Positions 23,620-31,315 of a stretch of DNA of 64,000 bases are shown in pieces. The DNA lies in the sequence record OL615012. One strand, written 5' to 3'. Each line of letters begins with the position of its first letter. Within the stretch, counting starts at the first letter, position 1. A model generated the notes under the pieces. It had not been told where the DNA came from and searched no databases. It saw only the letters and a list, made by a program, of their open reading frames with translations. The DNA comes from Shigella phage vB_SboM_Phaginator. The translations under genes were made by a program, and so were the position numbers.

Positions 23620-23680
23620 TTTGTGTTCCTCATGTTATGTCAGTAAGATTACTATAACACAACACGAGGGACTTGTAAAC
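23620..23680 (-). promoter_or_regulatory. Early-promoter-like cassette (GTTTAC -35, 18 bp spacer, TGnTATAGT -10) with inverted repeat covering the ribosome-binding site
   Basis: Minus-strand GTTTAC (23675-23680), TATAGT (23651-23656); inverted repeat CCUCAUGUU / AACACGAGG; near-identical copy upstream of alc. Confidence 0.5.
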
Positions 23681-25737
23681 TACATTTTGAACTTTTTAGA
23701 CATTCCGTTAATGTTAACCAAAGAAGCTAAGATTTGAGAAACTTCGTTTTCCTCTTCTTTTGATTCTTCTACAAGGAATTGATTAAATCCAGTCATTGGA
23801 CGAACTTCACCAGTTTCCATCAAATGGTCGCCATCATATACTGATTCCTCTAATTGTTCAGAAGGAGGAACGATTGTACCTTCGATTAGATACTTGTTAT
23901 AAGCAGTTTCTTTCATAAAGTACGTACTTACTTTATTAATCTTCAGTAAAATTCCACGTGGTAGAATAACTTCAGCTTCTGATGGAAATCCTGATAAATG
24001 ACCTGGAACGATAACTTTGATTCGCTCAGCTCCTTTAATTACCATACCCACGCTAGTTTCAGCATCTTCATTAGCATATGTAGAATGACTACCCATATGC
24101 ATCAAATCTTCTGCATCAACGGAACCTTCTCCTTCACCAGAAAATACTGCGCCGGAATCATCTAGAGCCATATAGTTTTTACCATGCTCACCGAAGATAT
24201 TTGGTTTAAGCGATGTGGATACGAAGTTCTTGAAATAGAACATTTTGTTTTCAATGTTATGACGCAAAGTTTTAAAGGTAACTTCTTGACCACGGTAAAG
24301 TGTAGTTCCTGGAGGAAGAACTGAACCTTTAGCGAATGCAGAATCAAGCGTCTCAATATGTTTAATAGCTCGTTCCATATATTCTTCACGGGTAGAATCT
24401 GGTTTACCCAAAAGGAACGAGTTCATTTCAACATATGAATCTGCGCAATAATCTTCAATTACATCAGATTCAGCTTGAGTTAATCCTTTTGGAGTTACTT
24501 CGGTGCTCGCGTATTCATATGCCTGAGCGGCAGATTCATTAATCAATTTATAAATGCCATTCATGACAAATTGAATAATAGCTGTCTTTTCATCTGGTGT
24601 AGCTTTAGAACCTTTAACTAAATCATTGATAATTTTCTTAATAACATCAAAGCTATTAGAAATATTAATGTCAGCAAGATCGCTTAAAATTTTATCAGTT
24701 TTATAATCAAAGAATTCTTTATTCTTTAAATATTCTTGAGAACCTTGATATGTTATATCGCTCTGCAACTTGATAGATGGATCACGTAAACGCGCATGGG
24801 CTAATGCAATATGATTTCGGAAACTTTCTAGTTCATAATCATTAGATTTAAAACGAGAAGCACTTCTCATACCACCGATAGCTCCTTTGCTGAAGTTTGA
24901 ACCAATCTGAATAACGCCAGAGTTCATTGGTCCTTCTGCTTTATATACCGGAACTTTAGATTCAAACTCTTGATATTTCTTAGCAGCGAAGCTATCACCC
25001 TGAAGTGAAGCATCAACAGTAGAATATTGAGCTTGTGCTGCTAATCGACGACTAATTTTAGTTTTCTGAATAACAGCTTGATCAGTGCGCTTATCATTTT
25101 CTAAAGCAATAGAAGCAGCAACAGCAACAGCTTTAGGAACAGCATTTCCTGTTTTAACGTCTACATAAACATCACCAACCTTTGATTCAACTTTTGTGAA
25201 TAACTCAGTTGAAATAGGAGGTATACCTGGAATGTCTTCTAAATTGGCATTTTTACGGTAAACCATAATATATGCATATTTCTTATCATAGTCCCAGATT
25301 TCCTTTAAAAGAACATACCGACCTGCTCCTTTAGTACGTACTAAACGGTCAGCAATAACTTGCATTTGACGGGCTGCGCCATTTGTTTTACTTTTTAGTA
25401 CGCGGAATAGGCATGCATCAATTTTATACTGTTTCATTGTTTGAAGAGCAGTATCAAAAACAGCATTAATGACGCCAATTGGATTTCCACCCAAGTTTTT
25501 AAGCTTGACTAACGATAATTTCTCGTTGACACCTATCATTACGATATGCATCATTTTGTCGCCCGGCTTAACGTTTTTATTCGTATCGCCGCCAGAGGTG
25601 TATGTACAAAATCTAAATCCAGGAAGCACGCTTTCTTCGCCGACTTGGATAGCAAAAATTTGTGGTATTTTATGCTTAGGATTTAAGTTAACAACCGGCG
25701 CCGAAGCGCCGTCAAATAATTCTGTAATAAGTTCCAT
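23680..25737 (-). CDS. alt: Alt ADP-ribosyltransferase (packaged, modifies host RNA polymerase), copy 1
   Basis: 685-aa ORF (T4 Alt 682 aa); R-S-E motifs (YRGQ, FVSTSL, EAEVILPRG); N-terminal MELITE resembles a gp21 cleavage/capsid-targeting signal. Confidence 0.9.
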   Translation of the reverse strand: MELITELFDGASAPVVNLNPKHKIPQIFAIQVGEESVLPGFRFCTYTSGGDTNKNVKPGDKMMHIVMIGVNEKLSLVKLKNLGGNPIGVINAVFDTALQTMKQYKIDACLFRVLKSKTNGAARQMQVIADRLVRTKGAGRYVLLKEIWDYDKKYAYIMVYRKNANLEDIPGIPPISTELFTKVESKVGDVYVDVKTGNAVPKAVAVAASIALENDKRTDQAVIQKTKISRRLAAQAQYSTVDASLQGDSFAAKKYQEFESKVPVYKAEGPMNSGVIQIGSNFSKGAIGGMRSASRFKSNDYELESFRNHIALAHARLRDPSIKLQSDITYQGSQEYLKNKEFFDYKTDKILSDLADINISNSFDVIKKIINDLVKGSKATPDEKTAIIQFVMNGIYKLINESAAQAYEYASTEVTPKGLTQAESDVIEDYCADSYVEMNSFLLGKPDSTREEYMERAIKHIETLDSAFAKGSVLPPGTTLYRGQEVTFKTLRHNIENKMFYFKNFVSTSLKPNIFGEHGKNYMALDDSGAVFSGEGEGSVDAEDLMHMGSHSTYANEDAETSVGMVIKGAERIKVIVPGHLSGFPSEAEVILPRGILLKINKVSTYFMKETAYNKYLIEGTIVPPSEQLEESVYDGDHLMETGEVRPMTGFNQFLVEESKEEENEVSQILASLVNINGMSKKFKM

Positions 25738-25740
25738 GAT

Positions 25741-27834
25741 TTATCCTTGAACGAACTTGTAAGGCATGTTTGTAATATCTATGCAAGACGCAATAATTCC
25801 AAGAGATGATTCTACTTTCTGTTTAACATTTGATGAAACAAATGATGCAAAGTCAACTCTGTCTTCTATTTCAATATCATCTGTCATTGCAACTACTTCG
25901 CCGGTTTCCATTAAATGGTCTCCGTCATAGATTACCGATTCGGTGAGTTCTTCTGTGGTCATAACTTCAGCTTGAATGAGTTTTGTATTATTAGATGTTG
26001 TTCCGTCATTATTAGAAGCATCAGTTATTTTATTAACTTTGACCATCAATCCGCGCGGTAGAATAACTTCAGCTTCTGTTGCTATTCCGAGACTTCCTGG
26101 ATATACAACATTAACTTTATGAGCTCCATCAATTGCCCATCCTATTTGAACTTTAACGTATTCAGGATTTTCTTTATACGCTCTTATTTCGCTTGGATTA
26201 ATAGTTATTCCTTCTTCATTTTTATCAACTGTCAATTCATTACGAGCTTCTGGTTCTAAAAGACCAATACCAGCATGTGTAATTCCAAAACGTCCAAAAA
26301 TGATAGGAGTTAAAGAAGTAGATACAAAATTTCTGAAATAGAACACTTTATTTTTAACTAGTGCTTCGTATATAGGAGCAGTCATACTTTGAGCACGATA
26401 AACTGTGATGCCTTCCGGTATGCGGTCACCATTTTCAAAAGCTGAATCTAAGTTATTTATAGCAGATTCAATTTCTTTTTCACTCATTACATCATATCGT
26501 TCTGGATTGTAACGACCTAAAAGAAGATTATTGATGTCAGTATATCCTGAACCGCAATATTCTCTAATGCCACGCTTTTGTGATGGAGTATATTTAGAAC
26601 CATCACGGGCAATAGTAATATCAATCATTGGACCAGCACCAATTCCAGAAAAACTGTAAATCATTCGTTTGAGGAATTTAGTTTTTGCTGCGTTCCAGGA
26701 ATTTTTAGTTATTTCTTCCCAGACTTCATCTGGTTGTCCTTTACGAGTTTTATTATGTTTATCAAGCCAATTATCTTTATATTCTTCAAAGAATTTATTA
26801 ACAGCTGCTGCGTATTTCTCTAAACATTTTATTGAAGTAGTTGGTTCATTTTTGATTGCGTTAAAAATTACATCTTTAATTTTTTCTGAAACTTCATCAA
26901 CCTCACTTTTTGAAAAGAATTTATAGTCATAGTGAAGTTCATTCGCAGTTCCTTCGGCAATAATTTTTGCTGCCTTAGTTTTAGAAGCTAATGAATTAAT
27001 TCCAAGCTTCATTTCTTCTGCTTCGGGAATTAAAGGAGCGGTAGCAGGTTTATTGAAATTAGCTGCGGTAGATTCATACTTCTGGAATAATTCACTTTCA
27101 AATCTAGAAGATTCCAATGATTGACTTTGTGCAATTGCTCTACGGGAAATTTTAACTTTAACGATTACCGCTTGGTCAGAACGTTTATCATTTTCTTGCG
27201 CAATAGATGCTGCAATTGCCTCATTTTTAGTTACTTGGGCTCCAGTATCTTTATTGATATAAACATCACCGACCTTTGATTCAACTTTAGTAAATAGCTC
27301 GGTACTAATTTCCGGAACTCCTGGAATGTCTTCTAGTGATACATTTTTGCGATGTATAAGAATATATGCATACTTTTTATCGTAATCCCAGAGTTCCTTA
27401 AGAAGGACGTATCTGCCACCTGAACGACTACGGATAAGTCTATCAGCAATAACTTGAATTTGTCGAGCTTGGCCAGCAGTTTTAGACTTAAGAATACGAA
27501 GCATACAAGCATCAATTTTATATTGACGCATAGTTTGCATTGCAACAGTAAAAACTGAATTGATATAATTAATTGGGCTTGGACCAAGACCTTTTAATTT
27601 AGCAATTGAACCTTTAGCAGTTAATGTAAAAGGAACAATATGCATCATTTTATCGCCCATCTTTAAATCGCGATTAGTATCACCTCCAGATGTATAGGTA
27701 CATAAACGAAAGCCTGGTTGTTCAATTGCATCATCAACATGAACTGAAAAAATTTGTGGTATTTTCTTCTTTGGATTTAAGTTTGTAATCGGAAGAGTAG
27801 TATCTTCGTCAAATAATTCTGTAATAAGTTCCAT
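25741..27834 (-). CDS. Alt-like ADP-ribosyltransferase paralog, copy 2
   Basis: 697-aa ORF; same N-terminal MELITELFD, conserved first ~230 aa and same R-S-E motifs (YRAQ, FVSTSL, EAEVILPRG), divergent middle region. Confidence 0.85.
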   Translation of the reverse strand: MELITELFDEDTTLPITNLNPKKKIPQIFSVHVDDAIEQPGFRLCTYTSGGDTNRDLKMGDKMMHIVPFTLTAKGSIAKLKGLGPSPINYINSVFTVAMQTMRQYKIDACMLRILKSKTAGQARQIQVIADRLIRSRSGGRYVLLKELWDYDKKYAYILIHRKNVSLEDIPGVPEISTELFTKVESKVGDVYINKDTGAQVTKNEAIAASIAQENDKRSDQAVIVKVKISRRAIAQSQSLESSRFESELFQKYESTAANFNKPATAPLIPEAEEMKLGINSLASKTKAAKIIAEGTANELHYDYKFFSKSEVDEVSEKIKDVIFNAIKNEPTTSIKCLEKYAAAVNKFFEEYKDNWLDKHNKTRKGQPDEVWEEITKNSWNAAKTKFLKRMIYSFSGIGAGPMIDITIARDGSKYTPSQKRGIREYCGSGYTDINNLLLGRYNPERYDVMSEKEIESAINNLDSAFENGDRIPEGITVYRAQSMTAPIYEALVKNKVFYFRNFVSTSLTPIIFGRFGITHAGIGLLEPEARNELTVDKNEEGITINPSEIRAYKENPEYVKVQIGWAIDGAHKVNVVYPGSLGIATEAEVILPRGLMVKVNKITDASNNDGTTSNNTKLIQAEVMTTEELTESVIYDGDHLMETGEVVAMTDDIEIEDRVDFASFVSSNVKQKVESSLGIIASCIDITNMPYKFVQG

Positions 27835-27857: not shown

Positions 27858-27865
27858 TATTTATA
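27858..27865 (-). promoter_or_regulatory. Late promoter (TATAAATA, minus strand) for alt paralog
   Basis: Minus-strand TATAAATA 24 bp upstream of ATG at 27834. Confidence 0.55.
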
Positions 27866-27870
27866 AAATT

Positions 27871-27888
27871 AAAGGCCCGAAGGCCTTT
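27871..27888 (-). terminator. Hairpin terminator at end of the gene 30 transcription unit
   Basis: AAAGGCC-CGAA-GGCCUUU hairpin overlapping stop codon of 62-aa ORF. Confidence 0.5.
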
Positions 27889-28075
27889 AGTAATCTAGTG
27901 GTAAGAGAGTACGATATATTTCAAACTTTGGTCCTTTTTCATAGGCATCAAATGTTTCTGTAAATTTATTATAAGCGTATGCATCTACAAATTCGAGAAT
28001 GACTTGTGATACAGAAGTAGAAACATCTCCACCTTCTTTTTGAGCAATGACAATTGTTTCTAAGTAAGCTTTCAT
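27887..28075 (-). CDS. Hypothetical protein
   Basis: 62-aa ORF with 4-nt overlap with ligase start. Confidence 0.5.
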   Translation of the reverse strand: MKAYLETIVIAQKEGGDVSTSVSQVILEFVDAYAYNKFTETFDAYEKGPKFEIYRTLLPLDY

Positions 28076-29535
28076 AAACCAGTTACCTCATGAAAATCGC
28101 CAAATACATCTTCAAACGTATTAGCTTTAGTTTTATCTTCACGTAAACGAATCGCAATCGGAAGAAATAATTTAACGTAATCAGTGCGGCCATCAGATTT
28201 TAACCAACCGTTGCATTCGCACTCTAGAATTTTTCCAATATAATAATTTTGGTTTTCCATAATGCGAGTACGGTCAAGTTCATGCGATTTTACACCGGCT
28301 TTATCTTTTAAGCCTGAACCAGCATTTACTTTAATTTTTCCACACTCTGACTCAAGAATAAATCCACCCGCTTTAGTAGGGTCTTTACGGTGAGGATAAA
28401 TTCCTACAATTTTTAAATCAACATCAATTACTTCTTTAAATTTATAAAGATTTTTTGAACGAGCATTTTCCCATAATCCATCGATATTTTTGAGAATAAT
28501 ACCTTCAAGACCTTGGTCAATATACTTTTTGTAAATTACCTTAGCTTCATCTAGGTTATTTACTACTTGGTTTTCAATTAAAATTACTTTATCATAGCCT
28601 GATGTCATTTGTTCTAGTTTAGAAAAACGTACATCATACTTTAAACGAAATGCAGGAAGACCATATATTTCTACTAATGGAACATAGTCCCAGACCTGAA
28701 ACTTCATGCATTGTGCTTCTTTTTCGGAAATGGTTCCCTTTAAAGATTTATTAGCGATTCCATTAGAAGTAGTACGTGATTCAGCTACTTCGGCGAATTC
28801 TTTAGCTTTACTAATTTCAGGATAAGCATCAAAAAGAAAATCTAGGCCTTCTGGCTCCTTTTCAACTTGCTCGTGGTATACCAATTCGCCATCAATTAAC
28901 ACACCTTCTGGATGAATCTGGCGGGCTTCAGCGGTCATTTTGATTAACTCTTCCTTAAGAAGATCTAATCCTAGGTATTCATTACCAGCTCGTGATAAAA
29001 GACGAACATCATCTAATTCATCACCTCTGACTTCGGCAAAGCACCGAGCTCCATCAGCCTTTAACTGGGCAAAAGCTGGAAATTTGATATTCTTATTAAT
29101 GCCTTTTTCATCATAAGAACTTGCCAGCATTTGAGGTTGTTCAGGAATTAAACCTGGCCAAACTTTGTTTGCAATAGATATTGAAGCACCGCATTCAAGG
29201 TCTCGCATCATCACTCGACGCAAAACTTCAACATCATCCTTTTTACCATCGGTGATATATCCAGTCAATTCCTCAATTGCAGCATTTCCGGTCAATTTCC
29301 GAGTAGCTAACGTGAATTCAATGAAGTCAAGCATATCGGTAATAGTCAGCATTCCAAAACTCTGGGTAGCAATACCAGGTTTAGGCCATTTCTTGATATA
29401 ATACTGCAACCCACGAGAATAAGTCAGACGATATACTCGTTTAAGCAATTCATTATCTTTATTCTTTTCAAGAATTGCTTGCTTCTGCTTAGTTGAACCA
29501 ATAGATGCTATTTCGTTCAGAATTTTAAGAATCAT
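28072..29535 (-). CDS. 30: DNA ligase gp30 (ATP-dependent)
   Basis: 487-aa ORF, N-terminus MILKILNEIASIGSTKQKQAILEK as in T4 DNA ligase; adenylation motif KADGAR. Confidence 0.96.
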   Translation of the reverse strand: MILKILNEIASIGSTKQKQAILEKNKDNELLKRVYRLTYSRGLQYYIKKWPKPGIATQSFGMLTITDMLDFIEFTLATRKLTGNAAIEELTGYITDGKKDDVEVLRRVMMRDLECGASISIANKVWPGLIPEQPQMLASSYDEKGINKNIKFPAFAQLKADGARCFAEVRGDELDDVRLLSRAGNEYLGLDLLKEELIKMTAEARQIHPEGVLIDGELVYHEQVEKEPEGLDFLFDAYPEISKAKEFAEVAESRTTSNGIANKSLKGTISEKEAQCMKFQVWDYVPLVEIYGLPAFRLKYDVRFSKLEQMTSGYDKVILIENQVVNNLDEAKVIYKKYIDQGLEGIILKNIDGLWENARSKNLYKFKEVIDVDLKIVGIYPHRKDPTKAGGFILESECGKIKVNAGSGLKDKAGVKSHELDRTRIMENQNYYIGKILECECNGWLKSDGRTDYVKLFLPIAIRLREDKTKANTFEDVFGDFHEVTGL

Positions 29536-29801
29536 TGTTCATCCTTTAGAGTTTGGTTTACAGCTCTATTATAAATCAATTCATCATTAAGCTCAGGCAA
29601 AGACTTATGATATGTAGTTCTAACTTTATTTCCTTGCATCCAGTGCTTGACGTAAATGAAACCTTGCTCTACACATTTTTTAAAAATTCGTTCGTCTTTT
29701 TGAGCTCGGAATTCTGGATTGCATCTAAAAAATTGATTTACGTGACCGTAATCACGTGTAGTATTACCTTCATTTTCATAAATAGTATGAACAACAAACA
29801 T
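29532..29801 (-). CDS. Hypothetical protein (30.1 position)
   Basis: 89-aa ORF overlapping stop/start with neighbours. Confidence 0.6.
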   Translation of the reverse strand: MFVVHTIYENEGNTTRDYGHVNQFFRCNPEFRAQKDERIFKKCVEQGFIYVKHWMQGNKVRTTYHKSLPELNDELIYNRAVNQTLKDEQ

Positions 29802-30661
29802 TAGAATGCTCCTTGGAAAATATTATCACCACTACCACTAGTAAGTCTATTAAAATACCCTGCATCGCCAGGCTTAATATAACTCCATGTATGGAATGGA
29901 TGGAATGGATTCTGATATGAGTGTGTATAATATGGATGATATGGATTATAAGGATTAAATCCAGGAGTTCTCCAAGTAGTGTTCCAACGAAAAGAATCGT
30001 TTTTAATCATCTTTTCAACTACATCTTTTATAGCTTTTTCACTATCAAAACTTTCTTTATTTTCCTTCGATGGAAAAAGCTTATTCTCTACATCATTCCA
30101 TGTATAAACTCGCTGTGCAGTTTTTGGAATACTGTCACGTTCCCCTCGAGCCATCCAATAAACAGGCACATTTAATATTTCACTCGCGTGATCGCAGTGG
30201 TGAGCGAGATCGTCAATATAACAAATTACGTTATATTTCTCTTTTGCCTTTTTGAACAACTCTTCTTTTGAAGAATCATGACCACACATCAATACTTCTG
30301 AGAAGGCACCAGGAAAAAGAGCATTCAAATTAAATTGACGATTCAGCAGAGCGTCAATAGAATCACCCAATGCTGTAACAGCTACAAAATTATAATCTTC
30401 TTTTAATTTGTTAATTACACACAGGGCATCTTTATATGGAGACAAGTAACGAATAAAATCTGAACGATTGTATTTTTCAATTAACTTGACGCCAAGTTCT
30501 TCATCACAATTAAAGAGTTTACCAGGAGAAATAAATTTCTCATCTTGGATCATTTTTAAAATATGTTCTAACGGAAGATTATATTTTTGGGCAAAATAAG
30601 GAAGACCTGATTGCCAGCTTAAACATACACCATCAATATCAGTCAAAATAGTAGGCTTCAT
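29801..30661 (-). CDS. HAD-like phosphatase/nucleotidase-family protein with aromatic His/Pro/Tyr-rich C-terminal tail
   Basis: 286-aa ORF; N-terminal DxDG motif (TDIDGV) typical of HAD hydrolases; unusual C-terminal low-complexity tail. Confidence 0.6.
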   Translation of the reverse strand: MKPTILTDIDGVCLSWQSGLPYFAQKYNLPLEHILKMIQDEKFISPGKLFNCDEELGVKLIEKYNRSDFIRYLSPYKDALCVINKLKEDYNFVAVTALGDSIDALLNRQFNLNALFPGAFSEVLMCGHDSSKEELFKKAKEKYNVICYIDDLAHHCDHASEILNVPVYWMARGERDSIPKTAQRVYTWNDVENKLFPSKENKESFDSEKAIKDVVEKMIKNDSFRWNTTWRTPGFNPYNPYHPYYTHSYQNPFHPFHTWSYIKPGDAGYFNRLTSGSGDNIFQGAF

Positions 30662-31122
30662 AGAGAGTCTCTTAATAGGTTTAACACATCAATAAATTCA
30701 GCTTCGGTTAGTATTGTATCATCTTTTGTTAGACCACTAGCCATGCTGTGCTTCAAAACTTTTCCTTTCGAGGCTTGTAATGCATCACGAAAGCCCTTGT
30801 TTTGGATCGCTGTTTCAAAATATGCATTTGTGTATAATTCTTTCCACGCCGGGGAGTATCTTGAAAACGGAACTCCGAGCCAGAAGAGGGTCCCACGGTC
30901 CTGAGCTCTAGCATAAGACCTTCCAGCTTGTTGGGCGGCAAGCCCGGATAACCCAAATACACGACGTTGTTGTTCAACATTTTTCACCTTGCACCCTTGG
31001 AGGAATCCTTCAAGACCTCCAAATTGAATACCATCCATAACGAAAGGCCATTGGGCGAAATTACTTAATGCACATGATGGCCACCTAAAATTGCTTCTAA
31101 TCTCTAACTCAGACATTTTCAA
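30658..31122 (-). CDS. NADAR/YbiA-like (DUF1768-type) protein, putative ADP-ribose or N-glycoside hydrolase
   Basis: 154-aa ORF; LSNFAQWP...DG...EGFLQGCK pattern resembles the YbiA/NADAR signature as I recall it; not verified by profile search. Confidence 0.5.
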   Translation of the reverse strand: MKMSELEIRSNFRWPSCALSNFAQWPFVMDGIQFGGLEGFLQGCKVKNVEQQRRVFGLSGLAAQQAGRSYARAQDRGTLFWLGVPFSRYSPAWKELYTNAYFETAIQNKGFRDALQASKGKVLKHSMASGLTKDDTILTEAEFIDVLNLLRDSL

Positions 31123-31315
31123 TACTTATAATTTCAACATCAGCCCAATGACCATAGCAAGGAAGACGAAATTCAACTGGCCAGTTAGGGTCCTTTTCTA
31201 ATATAACAGACTCAACTCGTGGTTCTTCATGTTCATCAGTATATGGATTTTTATCTGTTACTTTATATGTGACCTTAATGTACTGAATTCCAAAAATCTT
31301 ATTAATTATATTCAT
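31109..31315 (-). CDS. Hypothetical protein
   Basis: 68-aa ORF in packed early array. Confidence 0.5.
   Translation of the reverse strand: MNIINKIFGIQYIKVTYKVTDKNPYTDEHEEPRVESVILEKDPNWPVEFRLPCYGHWADVEIISIENV

Follow-up and report, generated by a model that had tools for sequence, protein, structure and literature searches.

Introduction

T-even phages resist the DarTG1 system, and Johannesman et al. (Nat Commun 2025) mapped this resistance to gene 30.3, which was renamed adfN, for anti-DarT factor NADAR (PMC11825919). The gene is necessary and sufficient for DarTG1 resistance: deleting adfN from T4 or T2 abolished plaquing on DarTG1 hosts, ectopic adfN expression rescued RB69, and purified AdfN took ADP-ribose off DarT1-modified DNA (PMC11825919). 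DarTG2, on the other hand, is not countered by AdfN (PMC11825919). At the level of the substrate, the T4 NADAR hydrolyses guanine-ADP-ribose (G-ADPr), but neither thymidine-ADPr (T-ADPr; PMC11125620) nor cytidine-ADPr (C-ADPr; PMC12945103). AdfN(T4) failed to rescue uninfected E. coli from DarT1 toxicity and rescued non-T-even phages only partially (PMC11825919). Given this weakness outside T-even infection, a phage factor or context seems to be needed (PMC11825919, PMC11125620); a T-even helper factor has been postulated for AdfN(T4), with DNA hypermodification excluded as the explanation (PMC11825919).

Other described NADARs share the fold and differ in the details of the active site. The third catalytic position is occupied by Glu in YbiA-type, by Asp in DarT1-associated and by His in phage (gp30.3) NADARs (PMC11543638, PMC11125620). 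C-ADPr is removed by YbiA-type and general NADARs, but not by the T4 type (PMC12945103), and the T4 protein cannot replace DarG1 in uninfected cells (PMC11825919). AdfN(Bas32) and AdfN(Bas60), from T5-like phages and Vequintavirinae, resemble T4 AdfN in being orphan phage NADARs with guanine-specific, anti-DarTG1 activity. However, they belong to other, independently acquired NADAR clades and—unlike the T4 type—neutralise DarT1 without phage context (PMC11825919).

Results

An ortholog of T4 gene 30.3 in a Tequatrovirus genome

We analysed a stretch of 64,000 nucleotides from Shigella phage vB_SboM_Phaginator (OL615012), hereafter the window. An original prediction made from these letters had pointed to an ORF at 30658-31122 whose 154-aa product carries the motifs LSNFAQWP, DG and EGFLQGCK; the ORF is present, and all three motifs occur in its translation. 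Called mechanically, it runs from 31122 to 30658 on the minus strand, with the 154 aa counted from a TTG at 31122. The likely start, however, is the ATG at 31116, two codons further downstream, because this codon overlaps the upstream stop, coincides with the start annotated in T4 and yields the published E36/K43 numbering (PMC11825919). The gene and its boundaries are as follows:

30658..31116, minus strand: adfN (gene 30.3), coding for 152 aa and ending in TGA
31109..31116, minus strand: ATGTCTGA, adfN start codon overlapping the stop codon of the 30.4 homolog upstream (read from the sequence)
30658..30661, minus strand: ATGA, adfN stop overlapping the start of gene 30.2 (29801..30661), an arrangement shared with T4

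The gene 30.4 homolog corresponds to the ORF at 31109..31315, and adfN starts within its end, in ATGTCTGA; this start/stop overlap suggests translational coupling of the two genes. The order of genes in the window is T4-like—ligase gene 30 (28072..29535), 30.1, 30.2, adfN, 30.4 to 30.9, rIII, 31 and cd—and in the T4 record, too, gene 30.3 lies close to the ligase gene, with 30.2 and 30.4 on either side. Over the 2.8 kb around adfN, identity to Escherichia phage vB_Eco_T-01 is 98.2%, with 731 phage records matching. Judged by its sequence, the window is a Tequatrovirus (T4-like) genome.

The window product aligns with T4 gp30.3 at equal length and without gaps, 149 of the 152 residues being identical (98%). 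All three substitutions (I53V, A103T and I125M) are conservative, and none affects a known functional residue. The high identity and the T4 gene order therefore mark the ORF as the 30.3 ortholog of a Tequatrovirus. With regard to protein length, the methods of one study give the T4 NADAR construct as ‘gp30.3; residues 1-208’ (PMC11125620), compared with the 152 aa that T4 30.3 encodes.

PF08010 (Phage_30_3) matched the product over 138 of 138 profile positions, with a score of 232 bits (cut-off 36; E=1.8e-69). Together with tblastn matches in 1510 phage records, this far exceeds what a chance ORF would give. Among the matches listed from these 1510 records, nearly all features over 30.3 are annotated as ‘hypothetical protein’. 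In the T4-like phages SV76, NR1, UGJNEcP4 and RPN226 (P0007, P0016, P0017, P0047), the 30.3 products are just 86-109 aa long or the matches are fused to domains of neighbouring genes; these may represent natural frameshifted or truncated alleles like that of RB69.

Family profiles and a structural model connect the product to NADARs

Searched with the single window sequence, Pfam NADAR (PF08719) gave no match, even at E up to 10. In formal terms this outcome speaks against the original prediction, which had named the lack of a significant NADAR profile hit as its counter-evidence. The single adfN product likewise returned nothing relevant from NCBIfam, PADLOC or a phmmer search of the PDB. With PF08719 silent on the single sequence, the link to NADARs came to light through the profile of the whole family, through intermediate sequences and through the fold.

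To this end, 104 homologs were collected, 59 of which were aligned (alignment A2); another alignment comprised 60 sequences. Twenty of the 59 aligned family members match PF08719 by themselves, the best at E=1.5e-7. When the family HMM was run against the PDB, E. coli YbiA came out on top (E=0.0084), the match extending over the SNF...E..Q..K motif, and hhalign paired the family profile with YbiA at 92.8% probability (E=3.9e-7).

An AlphaFold2 model built from alignment A2 reached a pLDDT of 93.6 and a pTM of 0.89. The modelled adfN product displays the helical core with flanking small beta-sheets by which the YbiA fold is recognised. In a Foldseek comparison against the PDB, the first three matches were the three solved NADARs—YbiA (2b3w), a Phytophthora NADAR (8bau) and the DarG1-type NADAR of Geobacter lovleyi (8bat)—and the remaining matches were noise. 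The NADAR/YbiA-like fold that had been proposed is borne out by these matches and by the family profile, whose alignment with YbiA brings the catalytic Glu and Lys of both into line; the NADAR fold of the adfN product is established independently of the literature.

The active site is of the phage type

The residues expected of a phage NADAR, and the C-terminal helix, map to these positions:

31009..31011, minus strand: Glu36 codon GAA, catalytic glutamate (distal-ribose contact), equivalent to YbiA E48 and PnNADAR E43
30988..30990, minus strand: Lys43 codon AAG, catalytic or phosphate-binding lysine, equivalent to YbiA K55 and PnNADAR K50
30748..30750, minus strand: His123 codon CAC, phage-NADAR signature residue, invariant in 59-60 sequences
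30664..30705, minus strand: C-terminal alpha-helix, residues 138-151, from the model; the product is full-length, with no frameshift

Glu36 is invariant in the 59- and 60-sequence alignments and stands opposite YbiA E48 in profile alignments, while Lys43 is kept in at least 90% of the family and lies in register with YbiA K55. The spacing between the two, 7 residues, equals that of YbiA E48/K55. The conserved NADAR Glu/Lys pair (E88/K95 in the E. coli C7 NADAR; E43/K50 in PnNADAR) is present as E36/K43, and exchanging either residue (E36A, K43A) impairs rescue by T4 AdfN (PMC11825919). As for His123, it follows on strand 120-122 in the predicted model and, if the hhalign register is continued without gaps, pairs with YbiA E125. 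The C-terminal helix is removed by a frameshift in RB69, which correlates with DarTG1 sensitivity and lowers activity (PMC11825919).

Compared with the described systems, window AdfN is closest to T4 gp30.3/AdfN, with which it shares 98% identity, length, the position between 30.2 and 30.4, E36, K43, H123 and the C-terminal helix. Besides the three substitutions, a further difference from T4 lies outside adfN: the window genome has two full-length alt paralogs, the second of which is missing from T4. DarG1 (BC4488 family; 8bat) is encoded next to DarT1, whereas the adfN gene of the window is an orphan—neither flanking gene (the 30.2 and 30.4 homologs) contains a DarT or ART domain, and PADLOC found no match. 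DarG1 (219 aa) further possesses an N-terminal extension, whereas window AdfN consists of the core domain only (152 aa, 133 of them aligned to 8bat), and the catalytic Asp in the last strand of DarG1 contrasts with His123. YbiA (2b3w) and the Phytophthora NADAR (8bau), both of PF08719, share ~18-19% sequence identity with window AdfN and carry a last-strand Glu (E125) where the latter has His at the equivalent place. YbiA also differs in its role, which is a housekeeping one in riboflavin metabolism.

The alt genes appear to be transcribed separately from adfN

Alt modifies arginine side chains, and two genes of this type are found in the window, with two sequence elements ahead of the nearer one:

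25741..27834, minus strand: Alt-type ADP-ribosyltransferase gene (PF03496), 70% identity to T4 Alt, full-length
23680..25737, minus strand: Alt-type ADP-ribosyltransferase gene (PF03496), 41% identity to T4 Alt, full-length, in tandem
27889..27870, minus strand: terminator-like hairpin AAAGGCCTTCGGGCCTTT plus T-run, G+C-rich, between alt.1 and alt
27865..27858, minus strand: TATAAATA, directly after the hairpin and ~24 nt upstream of the alt ATG

The original prediction had placed adfN about 3 kb from two alt genes, on the same strand and in the same early gene block. Distance and strand are confirmed, the nearer gene ending at 27834, 2.8 kb from adfN. The common block, by contrast, finds no support: the hairpin with its T-run and TATAAATA lie between alt.1 and alt. 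We take TATAAATA to be the T4 late-promoter consensus; it occurs 18 times in the window, as compared to 8.7 expected occurrences. Given the terminator-like hairpin and the promoter motif, alt appears to form a late transcription unit separate from the 30.x block, and on the same grounds we rejected a transcriptional link between adfN and alt.

At its two ends, the paralog with 70% identity hardly differs from T4 Alt, whereas its middle and catalytic region are divergent. In T4, just the short remnants alt.-1 and alt.-2 are found in the place of the 23680..25737 paralog. The T4 record describes Alt as a virion (capsid)-packaged ADP-ribosyltransferase that modifies RNA polymerase.

Gene 30.2 and the overlapping frame 30.3′

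Two further reading frames touch adfN:

29801..30661, minus strand: gp30.2, 286 aa, its start overlapping the adfN stop in ATGA
30753..30980, minus strand: 30.3′ ORF (75 aa), lying within adfN in its +1 frame, annotated in T4

Near its N-terminus, gp30.2 has a DxDGV motif resembling the HAD-phosphatase signature, and its C-terminal tail is Tequatrovirus-specific and rich in His, Pro and Tyr (...NPYNPYHPYYTHSYQNPFHPFHTW...). Searches with gp30.2 of Pfam (E up to 0.01), PDB sequences and PADLOC gave no match, and its sole PHROG family has no assigned function. In four genera of the Straboviridae (Tequatrovirus, Dhakavirus, Gualtarvirus and Lazarusvirus), the gene immediately after the 30.3 homolog encodes the ~195-aa N-terminal domain of gp30.2, with identities as low as 45%. 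We consider it improbable that gene 30.2 is the helper factor postulated for T4-type AdfN. Both genes are lineage-wide (30.2 in 1438 records, 30.3 in 1510), making their co-occurrence uninformative, and since their adjacency is lost in Aeromonas phage P19 and Klebsiella phage Roth01, the pairing may be inherited synteny.

In T4 and in Dhakavirus CLB_P2, the latter at 80% nucleotide identity, the 30.3′ frame is likewise free of stops and has the same ends. In synonymous-codon shuffles, however, an open run as long as 30.3′ arose in 9-23% of trials (p=0.09 and 0.23). As equally long runs arise in the shuffles, the openness of 30.3′ is no evidence for a gene, and we rejected it as independent support for a second gene at this place.

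Homologs in other genomic contexts

In Aeromonas phage P19 (L006, 5001..9536), the 30.3 homolog lies within a few kb of genes annotated as phosphoribosylpyrophosphate synthetase and nicotinate phosphoribosyltransferase, that is, NAD salvage; an association of some phage NADARs with NAD salvage has been described (PMC9503650). In Klebsiella phage Roth01 (L007, 1431..5835), it is located inside a tRNA gene cluster, away from ligase and 30.2, and has therefore moved within Straboviridae.

A more distant PF08010 member (P0045; 38% identity to the window protein) is found on very large metagenome contigs—up to 308 kb in L008-L011 and up to 424 kb overall—which carry many small unannotated ORFs as well as Thg1-like and NUDIX genes and are probably jumbo phages. 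As these contigs show no toxin neighbour, we rejected P0045 as a candidate for a non-T4 family member beside a DarT-like toxin.

Discussion

The window protein is an AdfN ortholog with the NADAR fold, intact catalytic residues and an intact C-terminus. We are confident that the ORF is the T4 30.3/adfN ortholog in the functional sense, too: a single-domain, NADAR-fold ADP-ribosylglycohydrolase that reverses the guanine modification introduced by DarT1. That the enzyme is active, specific for guanine and protective against DarTG1 has been documented for the published T4 and T2 alleles (PMC11825919, PMC11125620), and from the 98% identity to the T4 protein we infer that the window allele (I53V, A103T, I125M) behaves like T4 AdfN. 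Upon infection of a DarTG1 host, the DarT1 toxin would ADP-ribosylate guanine N2 of the phage DNA and so block replication. AdfN would then hydrolyse the N-glycosidic ribose-guanine bond and return the DNA to its unmodified state, in the manner of an orphan antitoxin; Glu36 is predicted to position the distal ribose and Lys43 to bind the diphosphate, with His123 at the third catalytic position.

The original prediction had offered two purposes for a candidate eraser of ADP-ribose, counter-defence against ADP-ribosylating toxins of the host and self-protection, and the former is what experiments on T4 AdfN versus DarT1 demonstrated (PMC11825919). Self-protection would mean that AdfN limits or reverses ADP-ribosylation by the phage's own Alt paralogs and by ModA/ModB, sparing phage components or tuning host takeover. 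Two Alt-type ART genes on the strand of adfN, at a distance of 2.8-7 kb, invite such a reading, as do the Alt-like genes that neighbour the 30.3 homologs of Morganella and Acinetobacter phages and the earlier remark by Iyer et al. (2022) on NADARs beside ART genes in T4-like phages (PMC9503650). Yet in the studies considered here the reported T4 substrates are all base-linked ADP-ribose, with the guanine adduct removed and those of thymidine and cytidine left (PMC11125620, PMC12945103), and the sole phenotype reported for T4 without adfN is the loss of plaquing on DarTG1 hosts (PMC11825919). Alt, moreover, is packaged into the virion and targets RNA polymerase, its gene is set apart by the hairpin with T-run and TATAAATA, and the homologs in Aeromonas P19 and Klebsiella Roth01 have no ART neighbour. 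The proposed link to the alt writers thus found no support in substrates, packaging or transcription unit, and the base-linked substrates, the lone DarTG1 phenotype and the separation of alt lead us to regard self-protection as very unlikely.

Equally hard to credit is a YbiA-like housekeeping N-glycosidase acting not on DNA but on small molecules, for example intermediates of the riboflavin pathway or soluble immune signals derived from ADP-ribose. YbiA is the best match by sequence and by Foldseek, and in Aeromonas P19 genes of NAD salvage are close to the homolog; but the Glu that defines the YbiA family is replaced by His123, and biochemistry and genetics of the T4 protein directly show DNA G-ADPr hydrolysis and a DarTG1-specific phenotype (PMC11825919, PMC11125620). 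A broader de-ADP-ribosylase, targeting also G-ADPr in RNA or the adducts of other guanine-specific toxins and defences, would add to the reversal of DarT1 modification and is a possible, if doubtful, extension. Representatives of all NADAR families remove G-ADPr from RNA in vitro (PMC12945103), the family is found in 1510 phage records from many host genera, and action against other DNA- or RNA-ADP-ribosylating systems has been raised as a possibility (PMC11825919). The in-vivo evidence, however, is confined to DarT1 products, and neither C-ADPr nor T-ADPr is hydrolysed by the enzyme (PMC12945103, PMC11125620). We retain reversal of DarT1 guanine modification as the preferred explanation.

The feature as such is already known: the product of gene 30.3 (adfN) has been characterised as a counter-defence enzyme against DarTG1, so that no new biology is added. 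The functional call from raw sequence alone was nevertheless correct, for a gene that took decades in T4. If the truncated alleles of SV76, NR1, UGJNEcP4 and RPN226 are real, these phages are predicted to be sensitive to DarTG1. Conversely, the intact adfN allele predicts resistance of the present phage to DarTG1 hosts, which bears on the host range of therapeutic T4-like phages.
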